DNA of 64,000 nt from sequence record OL362041.1; one strand, written 5' to 3'. Position numbers and translations under genes: made by a program. The notes under the pieces were generated by a model. It was not told where the DNA came from and did no database searches. It saw nothing but the letters and a program-made list of their open reading frames with translations. This stretch comes from Escherichia phage vB_Eco_OMNI12. This document shows, one piece after another, positions 2,222 to 7,769 of this stretch (position 1 is the first letter of the stretch; each line of letters opens with the position of its first letter).

Positions 2222-3226
2222 TTAACTTACCAATTCAATCCAAGCCGGACGAAGTACATCTTGTACCATTTTAACTAATTCCTTCTTAATCAAAGAAGGA
2301 TTATCCGCTTGAGCTAAAGTAATACCTTCACGAGAAGTTTCTTCCAAAATATCTTGAACAGTTAGTCCCATCACCTTTCCAAAATCCTTCGGACCAATTT
2401 CACCAATTTTAGAAATAACGTTATTTACTCGGTTCAGTGTAACGTAACAAGCTAAAATTCCAACCAATTTGTTATCAGCTTCTGACAGTTCAACTTTAGC
2501 TTTAATAGGCTTATCAGACTTTTTCTTTTCACTAAATTTAGAGTTCTTGCATTTGATAGCTACGCGATTGCCATTAGGCATCCAAGAAGGATAACAAGGT
2601 TTCAATACATATCCTTCAGCGGTAAATACTTCGCCTTTTACTTCAGCATTCCAAACGCATTTATTTGCATCAACTAATCCAGCATGGTCTACCGTAAAAT
2701 TATAATCCTGGACGACAGAATCTAAATCATTTGGCAATTTAATAAGTTCTTCAAATTTACCACGACCTAAAAGTGGAGCCATTTTAAATTTAAATGTATT
2801 ACAGAATGATTCCATCATATAATCATCGACATAAGTCACATCACCACTTTCGGTAGTAACAATAATGTCAAATACATAAAAATCTTTATCACCATAATCG
2901 ACATTCTTCTGAATGCCAGGTCCAGCGAATTCGCCAAAGACTTGATAAGATACAACCGCTGAAGTTTCCATAATATCTTGTACTGCTTTAATAGAATCAG
3001 CGTAATTCTTCAAAATAATTTCATACCCAAAGAAATCTTCAGCAGGAAGAATAGGACCAGTGCGTTTAGCGCAAGTTACTTTATCACGCTCAATAATCAA
3101 TGAGAAATTTGTGCCGTGAATCTTTTCACGAGCTACCCACTCCCCACCAGTCAATCCCAAGCTATAAAGTTTTTCAATAAATTTAGAGTTGTAATGATTT
3201 TCAAGACTGCTATACTTTTTAAACAT
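2222..3226 (-). CDS. rnlB: RNA ligase 2
   Basis: 334 aa; N-terminal nucleotidyltransferase motif KIHGTN; T4 Rnl2 size and position. Confidence 0.85.
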
Positions 3227-3235
3227 AATTAATCC

Positions 3236-3514
3236 TCAAAATGTAATTTCTAACCAATCACCATCACGCTGATCACTATTGACTTTAAAGCTAAATCCTT
3301 CTTTTCTCAGCCAATCACCAATTTCTTCAGTAATCAATTTATCGCGAGCAGTACAATAATAACTAAAATATGTTTTACCTTGTTCAGCTGCTTTATTAGC
3401 AAGTTCCGAAAAATCTTTAATAAAACACTCTAGCTTAAACTGTTTACTTTTAAGTGCTTTTTCGCGTAATCGATTAGCAAAAGATTCATTTTCATAAAGA
3501 TCATACTGTTCCAT
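3236..3514 (-). CDS. Hypothetical protein (T4 24.2 position)
   Basis: 92 aa ORF, tight packing with neighbours. Confidence 0.55.
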   Translation of the reverse strand: MEQYDLYENESFANRLREKALKSKQFKLECFIKDFSELANKAAEQGKTYFSYYCTARDKLITEEIGDWLRKEGFSFKVNSDQRDGDWLEITF

Positions 3515-3517
3515 TTT

Positions 3518-3715
3518 TCACCTTTTATTAATATGTCTTTTTCTATAGACAACTTTTTCTCGAGTTTCAAATTTATTCTTAGCAGTCATAGCTCGAGCCC
3601 ATAATACAGCCACTTCTTTCGCCTGTAAGTTTAATTCACGAGCAATTTCAATGAATGACTTTCCAGACTCATGAAGAGTAAACACCACAACCTCAGTTCT
3701 CATAATCAATCTCAT
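3518..3715 (-). CDS. Hypothetical protein (T4 24.3 position)
   Basis: 65 aa ORF. Confidence 0.5.
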   Translation of the reverse strand: MRLIMRTEVVVFTLHESGKSFIEIARELNLQAKEVAVLWARAMTAKNKFETREKVVYRKRHINKR

Positions 3716-3784
3716 GTTATCGAGTTGATGCCATTATATACATCATTTTCTGAGTATGTTTTGTGTGCTTTCAAAATGAAGAAA

Positions 3785-3798
3785 GGGGCCGAAGCCCC
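3785..3798 (-). terminator. Hairpin downstream of hoc
   Basis: GGGGC-TTCG-GCCCC on the - strand followed by TTTCTT. Confidence 0.45.
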
Positions 3799-3810
3799 TT
3801 ATGATTATGA

Positions 3811-5517
3811 TTATGGATAGGTATAGATGATACCAGTTTCTAAAGCAGTTTTATGAATGATGTATCCATTGCGTGATTCTTGAACATCAACTTCTGGATA
3901 GTCTTTAATCATCTTCTGAAGAGTGTAACGATGCAGGTAGTATTTACTATCTGGGTCGTCAGTTTTCCAATCTTTACCTTCTTCGGTCATTTTTTGGATT
4001 TCATCCATAACCCACCAACCGCACCAGATATAAGCTGAAGTACGATGTGGAAGAGGATGAACATAAGGCAATTCACCTTCTGGTTCTGGAGCAACTTTAT
4101 CAGTTACCTGAACTTGACCTTCTGCTGTAATAGTTTTGCTATCGTAATCAGTTGCAGTAACGACAGCAGTAACTTCAATAGTTTGACTTCCAACAGATGA
4201 GGTATCGACAGTATATACGTTAGTTGACCCTTCTACAGGAGAAGAATCTTTCTTCCATGAGTAAGTAATTTGTGCTTCTTCTGGAGCACCCGTAACATTA
4301 GCCGTAAATGTAGCCGAAGCATCTTGCTGAACGTTAATAGAAGGAGGAGTCAATGTAACCTGTGGATTCATTGTTTTCTTATTAACAGTCAATGATACTT
4401 CATTAGAAGTAACTTCCTTTTCATTGTAATTTTCTGCAGTTACTTGCGCTACACACTTAACTGTTTTAGCTCCAACTGTGGTAGGAGTATAGTTAAATGT
4501 AGTAGTAGTTTCTCCATCGACCAGAGAACCGTCAACATACCACTGATACGTAGCAGACGCTCCTGGTGGCTGTGAATCCAAGGCAGCAGTAAATTGAACT
4601 GGGGTTCCAATTACTCCGGCAGCAGGATTAGCAGGAGTTACGGCTAACGTAGTTGTCTGTGTCTTCTTATTAACTGTTAATGATACTTCATTAGAAGTAA
4701 CGCTTAGTGCATCATAATCTGTTGCTGTTACTTGCGCTACGCATTTAATTCTTTTTACTCCACTTGTAGTTGGAGTATAGCTAAATGTAGCAGAAGTCGC
4801 TTCACCAATTTGAGAATCATCTACATACCACTGATACGTAGCAGATGCCCCATCAGGTTGAGAAGCTAAGGCAGCAGTAAATTCAACGGCTGTTCCAATC
4901 ACTCCAGCTGGAGGACTATCAGGAGTTACTGCCAAGGTAGTCGTCTGCGTCTTTTTATTAACAGTCAATGATACTTCATTAGAAGTAACGCTTAGTGCAT
5001 CATAATCTGCCGCAGTTACTTGAGCTACACACTTGATTTTTTTAACTCCGCTTGTGTCAGGAGTGTAATTGAATGTAGCGTCAGTTGCTTCGTCTACAGG
5101 AGAACCGTCAACGTGCCATTGATACGTAGCGTTTGCACCTGATGGCTGTGAAGCTAAGGCAGCGGTAAATTCAATTGGAGTTCCAATCACTCCAGCATCA
5201 GGGCTACCAGGAGTTACTGCCAAAGTAGTTGTTTGTGTCTTATTTTGAACTGTGATAGTTGTACTAATTTCAGCTGTTTCAGGTTCAGATTCTGCAACTT
5301 GATTGGTTGCAACTACTTTAATAGTCTTTTGACCGGCAGGTCCTTTTAGTACATAACTAAAAGTTGCTGACGTTTCTTCCTGTGGAGCGTCGTCTACAGT
5401 CCAAGCATATGTAATAGGTCCATCTCCAGTTTGACCACTGGGTGTAGCAGTAAACTGCTTAGTTTCATCAATAACCCCTGTCGGTGTTTTAGGAGTTATA
5501 TCAACTGTAAAAGTCAT
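3811..5517 (-). CDS. hoc: Hoc outer capsid decoration protein, expanded (568 aa) with extra Ig-like domains
   Basis: Ser/Thr-rich Ig-like repeats plus C-terminal capsid-binding region; position after 24.x as in T4. Confidence 0.85.
   Translation of the reverse strand: MTFTVDITPKTPTGVIDETKQFTATPSGQTGDGPITYAWTVDDAPQEETSATFSYVLKGPAGQKTIKVVATNQVAESEPETAEISTTITVQNKTQTTTLAVTPGSPDAGVIGTPIEFTAALASQPSGANATYQWHVDGSPVDEATDATFNYTPDTSGVKKIKCVAQVTAADYDALSVTSNEVSLTVNKKTQTTTLAVTPDSPPAGVIGTAVEFTAALASQPDGASATYQWYVDDSQIGEATSATFSYTPTTSGVKRIKCVAQVTATDYDALSVTSNEVSLTVNKKTQTTTLAVTPANPAAGVIGTPVQFTAALDSQPPGASATYQWYVDGSLVDGETTTTFNYTPTTVGAKTVKCVAQVTAENYNEKEVTSNEVSLTVNKKTMNPQVTLTPPSINVQQDASATFTANVTGAPEEAQITYSWKKDSSPVEGSTNVYTVDTSSVGSQTIEVTAVVTATDYDSKTITAEGQVQVTDKVAPEPEGELPYVHPLPHRTSAYIWCGWWVMDEIQKMTEEGKDWKTDDPDSKYYLHRYTLQKMIKDYPEVDVQESRNGYIIHKTALETGIIYTYP
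4381..5244 (-). repeat. Three tandem ~288 bp coding repeats (Ig-like domain triplication) inside hoc
   Basis: Protein repeat KKTQTTTLAVTP...SNEVSLTVN occurs three times at about 90 percent identity; DNA repeats visible near 4372, 4660 and 4940. Confidence 0.85.
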
Positions 5518-5526
5518 AAGTTATCC

Positions 5527-6207
5527 TTATTTTAATGTTACGAAAGAAGAGTTGCGTGTTTCACGAATTAGAACTGATCCGTCACGGTTAATGTAATAAA
5601 TTAAGCTAAATAAAGTTTGGTGTGCTGACGCATGTTCAAAACTAGTTGGGTGAGATTTCCAATCAGGAGTTTCAGCAATCCATTGATAAATCCACCAAGG
5701 AACAGTACAGAATCCTGGATTTTTTCCAATCAACTGAAGATTCGGGCTAAAGTTTTCCGGAAGAGTAAATACAGACTGCTTTTCAGATTCAATAATCTCA
5801 GCTACAGCCTGTTCAAATTTTTCTTCAACAAATGGAGTATCTTCAATCAAAACATCGGTATTTTCAGGAATTTTATCTGTTTCTACTACTTCAATTTTAA
5901 TGTCAGATTTAACCGGAGAATCAATCAAAAGTGCTGCTTCTGGATTGACTTCTTCATCGTCATATTTTAACCCCTCTGCAGCATCAGCAGCATCAATTAA
6001 GTCTTTAATAGATAACCCATCAGTCTCCGGCATAGGTTCACTAGCGAGCTTCTGGAGAGCTTCTTCAATATCATTAACGATATTATCAAAAGATTTATTC
6101 TTTTTGACCTTTATACCAAACTGTTCAGCATATTCAGCTAATTTAGCTTTAGCTTCTTTATTATCATCAAGAGCCTTCAGCTCTGCAATATAATCTTTAT
6201 CTATCAT
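5527..6207 (-). CDS. inh: Acidic protein at T4 inh position (putative prohead protease inhibitor)
   Basis: 226 aa, highly acidic, located between hoc and uvsW. Confidence 0.5.
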   Translation of the reverse strand: MIDKDYIAELKALDDNKEAKAKLAEYAEQFGIKVKKNKSFDNIVNDIEEALQKLASEPMPETDGLSIKDLIDAADAAEGLKYDDEEVNPEAALLIDSPVKSDIKIEVVETDKIPENTDVLIEDTPFVEEKFEQAVAEIIESEKQSVFTLPENFSPNLQLIGKNPGFCTVPWWIYQWIAETPDWKSHPTSFEHASAHQTLFSLIYYINRDGSVLIRETRNSSFVTLK

Positions 6208-6257: not shown

Positions 6258-7769
6258 ATGACTGACATTAAAGTACATTTTTATGATTTTAGTCACGTGA
6301 GAATTGATTGCGAAGAAAGTACATTTCATGAACTCCGTGATTTCTTTAGCTTTGAAGCTGATGGGTATCGTTTTAATCCGAAGTACAAATATGGCCACTG
6401 GGATGGACGAATTCGTCTTTTAGATTATAATCGCCTTCTTCCATTCGGTTTAGTCGGGCAAATTAAAAAGTTCTGCGATAACTTTGGCTATAAAGCCTGG
6501 ATTGACCCACAGATTAACGAAAAAGAAGAATTATCAAGAAAAGATTTTGATGAATGGCTTTCTAAATTAGAAATCTATTCAGGAAATAAAAGAATTGAAC
6601 CGCATTGGTATCAAAAAGATGCAGTGTTCGAAGGATTAGTTAATCGTCGTAGAATTCTTAATCTTCCAACATCCGCTGGTAAATCGTTAATTCAAGCTTT
6701 GCTTGCGCGATATTATTTGGAAAATTATGAAGGTAAAATTCTTATCATTGTTCCAACAACTGCTCTAACAACTCAGATGGCTGATGACTTCGTTGACTAT
6801 CGTTTATTCAGTCATGCAATGATAAAGAAAATTGGTGGCGGAGCATCAAAAGATGATAAATATAAAAATGATGCACCGGTCGTTGTTGGTACATGGCAAA
6901 CTGTAGTAAAACAACCGAAAGAATGGTTCTCACAGTTTGGAATGATGATGAATGATGAATGCCATCTTGCTACAGGAAAAAGTATTTCATCTATCATATC
7001 AGGTTTAAATAACTGCATGTTCAAATTTGGTCTATCTGGTTCATTACGTGATGGCAAAGCCAATATCATGCAGTATGTTGGAATGTTTGGTGAAATATTT
7101 AAGCCAGTAACGACTTCTAAATTAATGGAAGATGGACAAGTAACTGAGTTAAAAATTAATAGTATTTTTCTTCGCTATCCCGATGAGTTCACTACTAAAT
7201 TAAAGGGAAAAACTTACCAAGAAGAAATAAAAATTATTACTGGGCTTAGTAAAAGAAATAAATGGATCGCTAAATTAGCTATTAAGCTTGCACAAAAAGA
7301 TGAAAACGCTTTTGTCATGTTTAAACACGTATCGCACGGTAAAGCTATTTTCGATTTAATTAAAAATGAATACGATAAAGTTTATTACGTATCAGGGGAA
7401 GTTGATACCGAAACCCGCAATATAATGAAAACCTTAGCTGAAAACGGTAAAGGAATAATTATAGTAGCTAGTTATGGTGTATTTTCTACTGGTATTTCAG
7501 TTAAAAATCTGCATCACGTTGTTTTAGCACACGGTGTTAAATCTAAAATTATTGTATTGCAAACAATAGGTCGCGTATTACGTAAACATGGTTCTAAAAC
7601 AATCGCAACAGTCTGGGACCTCATAGATGACTGTGGTGTCAAGCCAAAATCTGCTAATACTAAAAAGAAATATGTTCACTTGAACTATCTTTTAAAACAC
7701 GGCATTGATCGTATTCAGCGCTACGCAGATGAAAAATTTAATTACGTAATGAAAACAGTTAATTTATAA
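6258..7769 (+). CDS. uvsW: UvsW DNA helicase
   Basis: 503 aa; Walker A (PTSAGKS) and DECH box (MMNDECHLATGKS) helicase motifs. Confidence 0.9.
   Translation: MTDIKVHFYDFSHVRIDCEESTFHELRDFFSFEADGYRFNPKYKYGHWDGRIRLLDYNRLLPFGLVGQIKKFCDNFGYKAWIDPQINEKEELSRKDFDEWLSKLEIYSGNKRIEPHWYQKDAVFEGLVNRRRILNLPTSAGKSLIQALLARYYLENYEGKILIIVPTTALTTQMADDFVDYRLFSHAMIKKIGGGASKDDKYKNDAPVVVGTWQTVVKQPKEWFSQFGMMMNDECHLATGKSISSIISGLNNCMFKFGLSGSLRDGKANIMQYVGMFGEIFKPVTTSKLMEDGQVTELKINSIFLRYPDEFTTKLKGKTYQEEIKIITGLSKRNKWIAKLAIKLAQKDENAFVMFKHVSHGKAIFDLIKNEYDKVYYVSGEVDTETRNIMKTLAENGKGIIIVASYGVFSTGISVKNLHHVVLAHGVKSKIIVLQTIGRVLRKHGSKTIATVWDLIDDCGVKPKSANTKKKYVHLNYLLKHGIDRIQRYADEKFNYVMKTVNL

Follow-up and report, generated by a model that had tools for sequence, protein, structure and literature searches.

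Three diverged copies of Ig-like domain 2 in Hoc of Escherichia phage vB_Eco_OMNI12, a probable state of a recombination-driven copy-number polymorphism

Hoc is a non-essential fibre present on the mature capsid in up to 155 copies, in which the C-terminal domain sits on the centre of a gp23 hexamer and a string of Ig-like domains points outward. It is a model phage mucus adhesin and a display scaffold in T4 vaccine and vector engineering. In T4 Hoc, the residues that contact gp23 are Y293, H295, R300, W309, W310, D313 and E355-G359 (Fokine et al. 2023, PMC10385173). The number of Ig-like domains in Hoc is known to vary, in general statements (PMC10385173); e.g., the Hoc-like fibre of Serratia phage Muldoon has 1174 aa and 10 Ig-like domains (PMC10385173). 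A function has been assigned to one domain: domain 2 (N92-N187) of PNJ-9 Hoc binds MUC2 (fucose) via S183-L184-T185 (PMC11853027). The closest description of a domain gain is the record of RB30 (AY101183.1), whose 472-aa Hoc has a tandem extra domain 2 and is annotated with the remark 'intragenic repeat led to appearance of additional immunoglobulin-like domain'. Apart from this annotation and the generalities in PMC10385173, no published account of copy-number polymorphism of domain 2 was found in the literature searched.

The window analysed here, 64,000 nucleotides of the vB_Eco_OMNI12 genome, encodes a Hoc of 568 aa (Table 1). This gene, in a Tequatrovirus (T4-like) phage, is hoc, as the first-pass annotation had named it, and several lines of evidence bear this identity out. 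The protein matches T4 Hoc in the PDB (5vf3_Z) with an E-value of 2e-208 (phmmer), its residues 369-568 aligning with T4 Hoc 177-376. The gene lies between inh (ORF 5527-6207) and 24.3/24.2/rnlB, near the head genes 24 and 23, and the order inh-hoc-24.3-24.2-rnlB-24-23 is that of T4-like phages (window ORFs compared with annotated YUEEL01, ime09, RB32 and JK08). Finally, all named capsid-contact residues are kept, shifted by 192 relative to T4: Y485, H487, R492, W501, W502, D505 and E547-S-R-N-G551. The G10400 and fPS-65 records mark a terminator at the corresponding position downstream of hoc. No opposite-strand ORF of at least 60 aa is present within hoc, and the 64-kb window contains no tRNA, no Rfam family and no tandem repeat other than the hoc array; nothing therefore supports a further repeat system here, or an RNA element.

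Table 1. Features of the hoc locus, in window coordinates; all lie on the minus strand.
Feature	Position	Strand	Remarks
hoc coding sequence	3811..5517	-	568 aa plus TAA stop (3811-3813); five Ig-like domains and a C-terminal capsid-binding domain
hoc ribosome-binding site, AAGGA	5524..5528	-	read from the sequence; overlaps the inh stop codon
Ig-like domain 1, aa 1-91	5245..5517	-	predicted beta-sandwich, pLDDT 82-92
Unit u1, aa 92-187	4957..5244	-	cassette type C ('proximal' type); in-frame unit comparison
Unit u2, aa 188-283	4669..4956	-	cassette type F, nearest to T4 domain 2; in-frame unit comparison
Unit u3, aa 284-379	4381..4668	-	cassette type D; in-frame unit comparison
43-nt tract identical in u1 and u2 (unit nt 236-278)	4967..5009 (u1); 4679-4721 (u2)	-	exact-run comparison
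33-nt unit tail identical in u1 and u3 (unit nt 256-288)	4381..4413 (u3); 4957-4989 (u1)	-	encodes ...TSNEVSLTVN
10-nt u2 patch	4702..4711	-	5 sites differ from YUEEL01 and phiD1; DAKT -> DALS
S183-L184-T185 motif	4963..4971 (u1); 4675-4683 (u2, aa 279-281); 4387-4395 (u3, aa 375-377)	-	sequence comparison
Ig-like domain, equivalent of T4 Hoc domain 3, aa 380-473	4099..4380	-	Pfam Ig_3 and I-set at aa 385-469; predicted beta-sandwich
C-terminal capsid-binding domain, aa 474-568	3814..4098	-	homologous to T4 Hoc residues 281-376; lies within the PDB match
Probable intrinsic terminator	3783..3800	-	GC-rich hairpin, then a T-run; 10 nt past the hoc stop

T4 Hoc (376 aa; 5vf3 chain Z, 8t1x) has the same gene position, domain 1, domain 3 and C-terminal domain, but only three Ig-like domains against five in the window protein, in which u1 and u3 flank a T4-like u2. 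The added length is accounted for completely by two extra copies of domain 2 (568 = 376 + 2 x 96), in keeping with the first-pass annotation's comparison of 568 with 376 aa. Tandem Repeats Finder reports a single array at 4372-5241 (period 288, 3.0 copies, score 1040, 79% matches); read in frame, it comprises three 288-bp / 96-aa copies of Ig-like domain 2, contiguous, in register and of equal length. The array limits first proposed, 4381-5244, are exact, and so is the repeat period of about 288 bp. The accompanying estimate of ~90 percent protein identity between repeats is too high: the three pairs of units are 82, 73 and 73% identical in protein and 78.8, 78.8 and 77.4% in DNA, i.e., they differ at 21-23% of nucleotides, more than 60 of the 288 positions. 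Synonymous divergence between units (dS 0.54-0.89, with dN/dS 0.13-0.31) is two to four times that between the window and T4 in the flanking hoc domains (dS 0.18-0.26), and the longest exact in-register run common to two units is 43 nt.

The flanking domains are distinct from the array. Domain 1 is 39-41% identical to the repeat units and is the most variable flank between phages (83-98% DNA identity); domain 3 is 100% identical in DNA in YUEEL01, KMB26, JK08, HP3.1, U115, PYPS2T and fPS-65, whatever their copy number; and the C-terminal domain has a dN/dS of 0.02-0.10 against other phages. Pfam matches above cut-off are PKD, Ig_2, Ig_3, I-set and PKD_4, with three stretches each for PKD and Ig. 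In the AlphaFold model, the protein forms five beta-sandwiches (pLDDT about 85-94), and prediction of each repeat's fold, which had been proposed as a check, makes every unit a beta-sandwich with a matching strand pattern. Foldseek retrieves multi-Ig chains and a 568-aa viral model at TM 0.81; against the PDB, the full model finds only generic multi-Ig chains, at low TM scores that reflect differing inter-domain geometry, and these matches support the fold class only.

Comparison of Hoc length across isolates, another proposed check, yields classes of one to four units, from 376 to 664 aa. In an even sample of phage records, hoc spans 1131, 1419 and 1707 bp in 29, 20 and 2 records, respectively, and besides this sample a 1995-bp hoc (664 aa, four units) occurs in slur03 and FJ1; the classes step by exactly 288 bp / 96 aa. 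Among the matches listed, the best 120 proteins, Hoc lengths are 376, 472 and 568-570 aa, and the four-unit proteins of slur03 and FJ1 are not included. Match spans at the 21 Hoc loci on IMG/VR viral contigs never extend beyond a two-unit gene. Even genomes about 98% identical over 25 kb differ in having one, two or three units.

The long Hoc form is already known, being deposited in at least 12 phages: the three-unit architecture is present in 13 GenBank records (12 phage names; submitters in South Korea, Slovakia and the USA among others), and 8 protein clusters drawn from NCBI, ENA and Logan have it too. Specialists will be unsurprised by it, as variable Ig-domain number in Hoc is published and the three-unit form is in the databases. 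The best match to the window gene, 98.8% identical in DNA over its whole length, encodes the 568-aa Hoc of YUEEL01 (NC_054935.2, YP_010074903.1; annotated 'Hoc-like head decoration'), which shares the u1-u2-u3 order; the two genes differ at 21 nucleotides, ten of them in domain 1 and five in the u2 patch. The same order is found in TOPO13, ECML-123-2, KMB26, EC101, ESh16/26/34/36, UGKSEcP1/2 and T4_ev151, and no deposited record is identical to the window hoc. Among the protein clusters, nine unit types make up six different three-unit combinations. The tandem domain of RB30 resembles the window array; however, RB30 has two units rather than three, and their cassette types are not those of the window (DNA identity 88% to u1 and 86% to u2). 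In the 664-aa Hoc of slur03 (NC_042129.1), units 1, 3 and 4 correspond to u1 (94%), u2 (93%) and u3 (99%), and u2-like and u3 units are present in that of vB_EcoM_FJ1 (MZ170040.1); compared with the window, the four-unit proteins have an extra unit between u1 and u2 that is 82-84% identical to any window unit. Long fibres of the Muldoon type share a conserved capsid-binding domain and an Ig-like string of variable length, but are distant in sequence, and their domain strings are not near-identical cassettes common to one genus.

Each window unit has DNA twins of 98-100% identity in other Tequatrovirus phages, and these twins are spread across one-, two-, three- and four-unit genes. u1 shares 99.3% identity with the one domain 2 that PYPS2T has, and with unit 1 of phiD1, JK08, G10400 and YUEEL01. 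For u2, identity is 98.3% with unit 2 of phiD1, ESh33 and YUEEL01 and 91.7% with the single domain 2 that T4 has. u3 recurs unchanged (100%) as the final unit in YUEEL01, KMB26 and U115, and at 99.3% identity as the sole domain 2 in fPS-65. The unit content of these genes can be written as u1 alone in PYPS2T, u3 alone in fPS-65 (its first ~21 nt being of u1 type), u1-u3 in U115 and JK08, u1-u2 in phiD1 and u1-u2-u3 in YUEEL01. Overall, positional counterparts in other phages are 92-100% identical in DNA, whereas neighbours within the array reach only 75-84%. Orthologous units are thus closer than paralogous ones, as the cassette model requires. Since positional counterparts are 98-100% identical and neighbours only 75-84%, the units predate the hoc alleles sampled, and homogenisation is not under way.

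The junctions between units point to how copy number changes. The second unit of JK08 follows u2 through nt 15 and u3 from nt 21; the sole unit of fPS-65 follows u1 through nt 21 and u3 from nt 24; the first unit of U115 follows u1 through nt 235 and u2 from nt 279, switching exactly across the 43-nt tract and leaving a u1 with a u2-type tail, unlike every other u1 examined; and in PYPS2T u1 joins domain 3 directly, inside the shared 33-nt tail. All four chimeric junctions are located in tracts of inter-unit identity, and the units of HP3.1 and G10400 are u2/u3 mosaics. On a 100%-identical domain 3, whole in-frame units number one (PYPS2T, fPS-65), two (JK08, U115) or three (YUEEL01 and the window).

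The reading we favour, with a probability of roughly 0.85, is that T4 domain 2 is represented here by three old, diverged cassettes, and that the array is one state of a standing polymorphism of one to four copies, produced by unequal homologous recombination. u1, u2 and u3 would be old, diverged paralogue or allele types, each under purifying selection. The unit has conserved ends, its final ~40 nt and its initial ~25 nt, and homologous recombination out of register within these ends would insert or delete whole domains in frame; the 43-nt tract shared by u1 and u2 is a putative substrate for it. One- and two-unit relatives on nearly the same backbone would, in the simplest reading, be single-crossover deletions from a u1-u2-u3 array; we infer this direction of change, deletion, by parsimony. 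The recombination scars would explain the pattern without diversity-generating retroelements or phase variation. The first-pass annotation's expectation that the array is recombinationally unstable stands in part: copy number does change by recombination over evolutionary time, but instability on the laboratory scale may be low, given exact repeats of no more than 43, 33 and 23 nt.

It is possible, although we think it improbable, that the shorter forms are older and the three-unit array is derived, having arisen by one unequal crossover between co-infecting phages, one u1-u2 (phiD1-like) and the other u1-u3 (U115-like). T4-like phages recombine freely in mixed infection, all the parents needed exist, and a crossover in the 23-43-nt tail shared by u2 of the one and u1 of the U115-like parent gives the window junctions exactly. 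The u2-type tail on u1 of U115 and the chimeric starts of the units in JK08 and fPS-65 argue against this order of events: a single deletion from u1-u2-u3 accounts for each of the three junctions, whereas build-up in the other direction would call for special parents every time. Exchanging the two histories alters the direction of change only; the mechanism is unchanged.

The first-pass annotation had instead proposed a recent triplication of the Ig-like domain in situ or its ongoing concerted evolution within the phage lineage. The exact register, equal length and contiguity of the units fit a recent triplication, but their DNA identity of 77-79% and dS of 0.54-0.89 contradict it. Concerted evolution can draw on the u2 patch, the sole homogenisation signal in the array. 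All five changes in this patch, which account for five of the 21 differences from YUEEL01 and cluster at hoc nt 807-816, are in the u1 state, and through them the stretch over which u1 and u2 match exactly grows from 23 to 43 nt; the patch is a candidate for gene conversion or inter-allele recombination. However, the patch need not derive from u1, because T4 domain 2 has the same state. Moreover, units with counterparts of 98-100% identity elsewhere, even as a sole domain 2, display the opposite of the pattern that concerted evolution predicts, and the differing divergence of the flanking domains argues against these counterparts being recent horizontal copies of array units. On unit divergence and on the identity pattern of orthologues and paralogues, recent triplication and concerted evolution are rejected as highly improbable. 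An assembly artefact, a possibility that the first-pass annotation had itself raised, is barely credible: tandem repeats are a classic source of expanded or mis-joined assemblies, and the window alone does not prove copy number, but the units differ at so many positions, with exact runs so short, that ordinary reads can be assigned to them without ambiguity, no unit breaks the reading frame, and the u1-u2-u3 order recurs at 94-98.8% identity in phages that were sequenced independently, as well as in 8 protein clusters.

Under the favoured reading of old cassettes exchanged by unequal recombination, the array may also have functional consequences. The sequence NEVSLTVN closes all three units (aa 180-187, 276-283 and 372-379), with the S-L-T residues of the PNJ-9 mucin-binding motif inside it, although the architecture of PNJ-9 Hoc differs in lacking domain 3. 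Because this motif is kept in every unit, it is plausible, as the first-pass annotation had proposed, that the extra domains add reach or avidity, and the PNJ-9 result fits this idea. The two additional domains would lengthen the fibre from the about 18 nm of T4 to a predicted length of roughly 27 nm, and the number of domain-2 glycan-binding sites per Hoc would be tripled, so that reach and avidity for mucus or cell surfaces would change. A bolder proposal, which we regard as tentative and rather unlikely, is that domain 2 is an accordion of interchangeable adhesin cassettes whose copy number is adaptive and rapidly tunable, not a neutral length polymorphism. If it held, the conserved unit boundary would both encode the S-L-T glycan-binding strand and act as a recombination substrate, co-infecting phages would change the number (1-4) and type of cassettes, and mucosal or surface environments would select fibre length and avidity.

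Natural hoc alleles with one to four copies on near-identical backbones offer an isogenic-like series for the effect of fibre length and site number on mucus retention, and the natural long Hoc alleles show that the capsid tolerates extra Ig domains. For annotation, differences of 96 aa in Hoc length between close relatives are to be read as genuine and homologous rather than as errors. The differences between units favour predicted loops, falling at 19 of 43 loop positions and 12 of 53 strand positions (Fisher p = 0.03).

The repeat array lies in hoc, a capsid decoration protein gene set in a T4-type gene order. Escherichia phage YUEEL01 is annotated with the same order, and its corresponding gene is labelled 'Hoc-like head decoration'. 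The best solved-structure match of the 568-aa protein is T4 Hoc (5vf3_Z, E 2e-208), and the T4 Hoc capsid-contact residues named by Fokine et al. (PMC10385173) are all kept, offset by +192. Pfam PKD, Ig_2 and PKD_4 each match three stretches, and Ig_3 and I-set fall on the domain after them. The hoc ribosome-binding site, AAGGA, overlaps the stop codon of inh. Tandem Repeats Finder reports a single array (4372-5241, period 288, 3.0 copies, 79% matches, score 1040) and no other within the 64-kb window; neither tRNA genes nor Rfam families at gathering threshold were found in window 1-64000.

Coordinates of hoc, its repeat units and neighbours in the window, and of four-unit hoc genes in loci from other phages
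Feature	Coordinates	Strand	Remark
RNA ligase	2222-3226	minus	hoc neighbour
Small ORF like 24.2	3236-3514	minus	hoc neighbour
Small ORF like 24.3	3518-3715	minus	hoc neighbour
Hairpin + T-run	3783-3800		3' of hoc stop codon
hoc ORF	3811-5517	minus	568 aa; contains the repeat array
u3	4381-4668		in-frame unit, aa 284-379
u2	4669-4956		in-frame unit, aa 188-283
u1	4957-5244		in-frame unit, aa 92-187
inh-like ORF	5527-6207	minus	226 aa; hoc neighbour
uvsW-type helicase	6258-7769	plus	hoc neighbour
Four-unit hoc, slur03 (NC_042129.1)	L022 367-2361
Four-unit hoc, FJ1 (MZ170040.1)	L023 556-2550

By sequence, the window hoc is T4 hoc with two added copies of T4 domain 2 (376 + 192 = 568 aa), giving three tandem units, or cassettes, u1, u2 and u3. 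The first-pass annotation had placed its repeats exactly on these units and was right about the length relative to 376 aa in T4, the 192-aa excess being two units of domain 2; its protein identity of ~90% was too high. Unit pairs are 82, 73 and 73% identical in protein (78.8, 78.8 and 77.4% in DNA); their identity to domains 1 and 3 is 32-41%.

The same annotation took the array for a recent duplication or a product of ongoing concerted evolution. Added copies of an Ig-like domain are indeed present, but both synonymous divergence and the identity of orthologous units contradict recent origin and homogenisation. Nei-Gojobori dS between units is 0.89 (u1/u2), 0.54 (u1/u3) and 0.68 (u2/u3), above the 0.18-0.26 that separates the flanking hoc domains from those of T4; the divergence of the units therefore predates the sampled Tequatrovirus hoc alleles. 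With inter-unit dN/dS of 0.13-0.31, all three are under purifying selection. The only trace of homogenisation is a 10-nt patch at 4702-4711 (hoc nt 807-816), which holds five of the 21 differences (in 1707 positions) from YUEEL01, the nearest deposited allele; it turns DAKT of u2 into DALS, as in u1 and T4 domain 2, and extends to 43 nt an exact u1/u2 match that is otherwise 23 nt long. The patch is either a small gene conversion with u1 as donor or the outcome of exchange with a different allele.

Each unit was searched singly against 50,697 phage records, and hoc was dissected from 21 phages. Positional counterparts are 92-100% identical, non-counterparts 75-84%. u1 matches the only domain 2 of PYPS2T (99.3% DNA identity) and likewise the first unit of phiD1, JK08, G10400 and YUEEL01; u2 matches unit two of phiD1, ESh33 and YUEEL01 (98.3%) and, at 91.7%, the single domain 2 of T4; u3 recurs unchanged (100%) as the final unit of YUEEL01, KMB26 and U115 and, at 99.3%, as the sole domain 2 of fPS-65. 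The window units are cassettes common to several phages. Protein-level typing at 88% identity distinguishes nine types among 167 units from 121 Hoc proteins; u1-u2-u3 reads C-F-D, one of six type combinations among three-unit proteins.

Domain-2 copy number is a standing polymorphism that ranges from one to four, and across related isolates Hoc exists in 376-, 472-, 568-570- and 664-aa forms. In an evenly spaced sample drawn from the 678 matching records, hoc spans of 1131, 1419 and 1707 bp occur 29, 20 and 2 times; the 1707-1713 bp form is found in 13 records under 12 phage names. Among the best 120 whole-protein matches, clusters of 376 aa (n=78), 472 aa (n=29) and 568-570 aa (n=8) are seen, a list that understates the longest forms, as slur03 and FJ1 (four units, 1995 bp, 664 aa) are absent from it. 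The slur03 order is u1-like, an extra unit, u2-like, u3. The 25 kb around hoc are ~98% identical to ESCO58 (one unit), G4498 (two) and YUEEL01 (three), and domain 3 DNA is 100% identical in the window, YUEEL01, KMB26, JK08, HP3.1, U115, PYPS2T and fPS-65; copy number therefore shifts far more quickly than unit sequences do.

T4-type phages are highly recombinogenic, and unequal (out-of-register) homologous recombination between units changes cassette number. At the sites where u1, u2 and u3 can be told apart, short relatives display clean single switches: the second unit of JK08 is u2-type through nt 15 and u3-type from nt 21, the first unit of U115 u1-type through nt 235 and u2-type from nt 279, and the only unit of fPS-65 u1-type through nt 21 and u3-type from nt 24. 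In PYPS2T, the junction of its only unit, u1 to domain 3, lies inside the 33-nt tail that u1 and u3 share exactly. These switch points sit within tracts of exact inter-unit identity, the signature of such recombination. The short alleles probably derive from a u1-u2-u3-like array, because three different junctions each need one deletion only; the reverse direction, a three-unit array built up from phiD1-like and U115-like parents, is less likely. The longest exact tracts between window units are 43 (u1/u2), 33 (u1/u3) and 23 nt (u2/u3). With less than about 50 bp of homology, T4 recombination frequency drops sharply; if this is correct, laboratory instability of the array may be low.

HP3.1 and G10400 carry u2/u3 mosaic units. 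The second unit of HP3.1 (OK275722.1), a derivative of HP3 whose record gives 'in vitro directed evolution' as source, reads u3-u2-u3-u2 and changes type near unit nt 57-66, 111-135 and 255-279.

An AlphaFold model from 22 homologues (mean pLDDT 82.9) has five beta-sandwiches at pLDDT of about 85-94, with a shared strand pattern in u1, u2 and u3, and a low-confidence C-terminal domain. Foldseek matches multi-Ig chains in PDB and a 568-aa model in BFVD (95% identical, TM 0.81). Inter-unit differences are enriched in predicted loops (19/43 loop vs 12/53 strand positions, p = 0.03). The T4 capsid carries up to 155 Hoc fibres with a length of about 180 Å (PMC10385173); scaled proportionally, a fibre with two added domains would measure roughly 27 nm. 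Domain 2 of PNJ-9 Hoc (N92-N187, the numbering of u1) binds MUC2 and requires S183, L184 and T185 (PMC11853027); u1, u2 and u3 all end in NEVSLTVN. Because the fibre would be longer and offer three domain-2 sites per Hoc, altered reach and avidity are a reasonable model.

The five-Ig feature is already known and its mechanism ordinary: deposits from at least 12 phages carry the form, as does UniProt/BFVD, the RB30 record (AY101183.1) states that an 'intragenic repeat led to appearance of additional immunoglobulin-like domain', and Ig-like domain number varies among Hoc homologues (PMC10385173). Our literature search found no paper on variation between one and four cassettes or on the junctions involved, which lends the comparative picture some modest value.

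The three-unit hoc of UGKSEcP2 (OV876900.1 113103-114815; 1713 bp, 570 aa) has 2 aa inserted upstream of its first unit, and its unit ends are offset by +2. hoc matches that are much shorter, spanning about 495-870 bp, occur in some Tequatrovirus records, namely BEU50 (OM632671.1), F2 (MN864145.1) and vB_EcoM_WFK (MK373775.1); they recall PNJ-9 Hoc, which lacks domain 3 (PMC11853027), and therefore point to domain loss as well as gain. hoc is split into two annotated CDS in vB_EcoM_ACG-C40 (JN986846.1, L015 301-1432), where the reading frame ends after 169 aa, and in T2 (NC_054931.1) and T6 (NC_054907.1), which suggests that some isolates and laboratory strains have a frameshifted and perhaps inactive hoc. 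Between alleles that are otherwise close, hoc diverges most in domain 1 (5245-5517), where DNA identity is 83-98% and dN/dS in comparisons with T4 and RB30 reaches 0.5-0.6. Ten of the 21 changes relative to YUEEL01 fall there, and eight of these lie in hoc nt 4-58, close to, yet upstream of, the codons for E29 and G33, the reported MUC2-binding residues of PNJ-6 Hoc.
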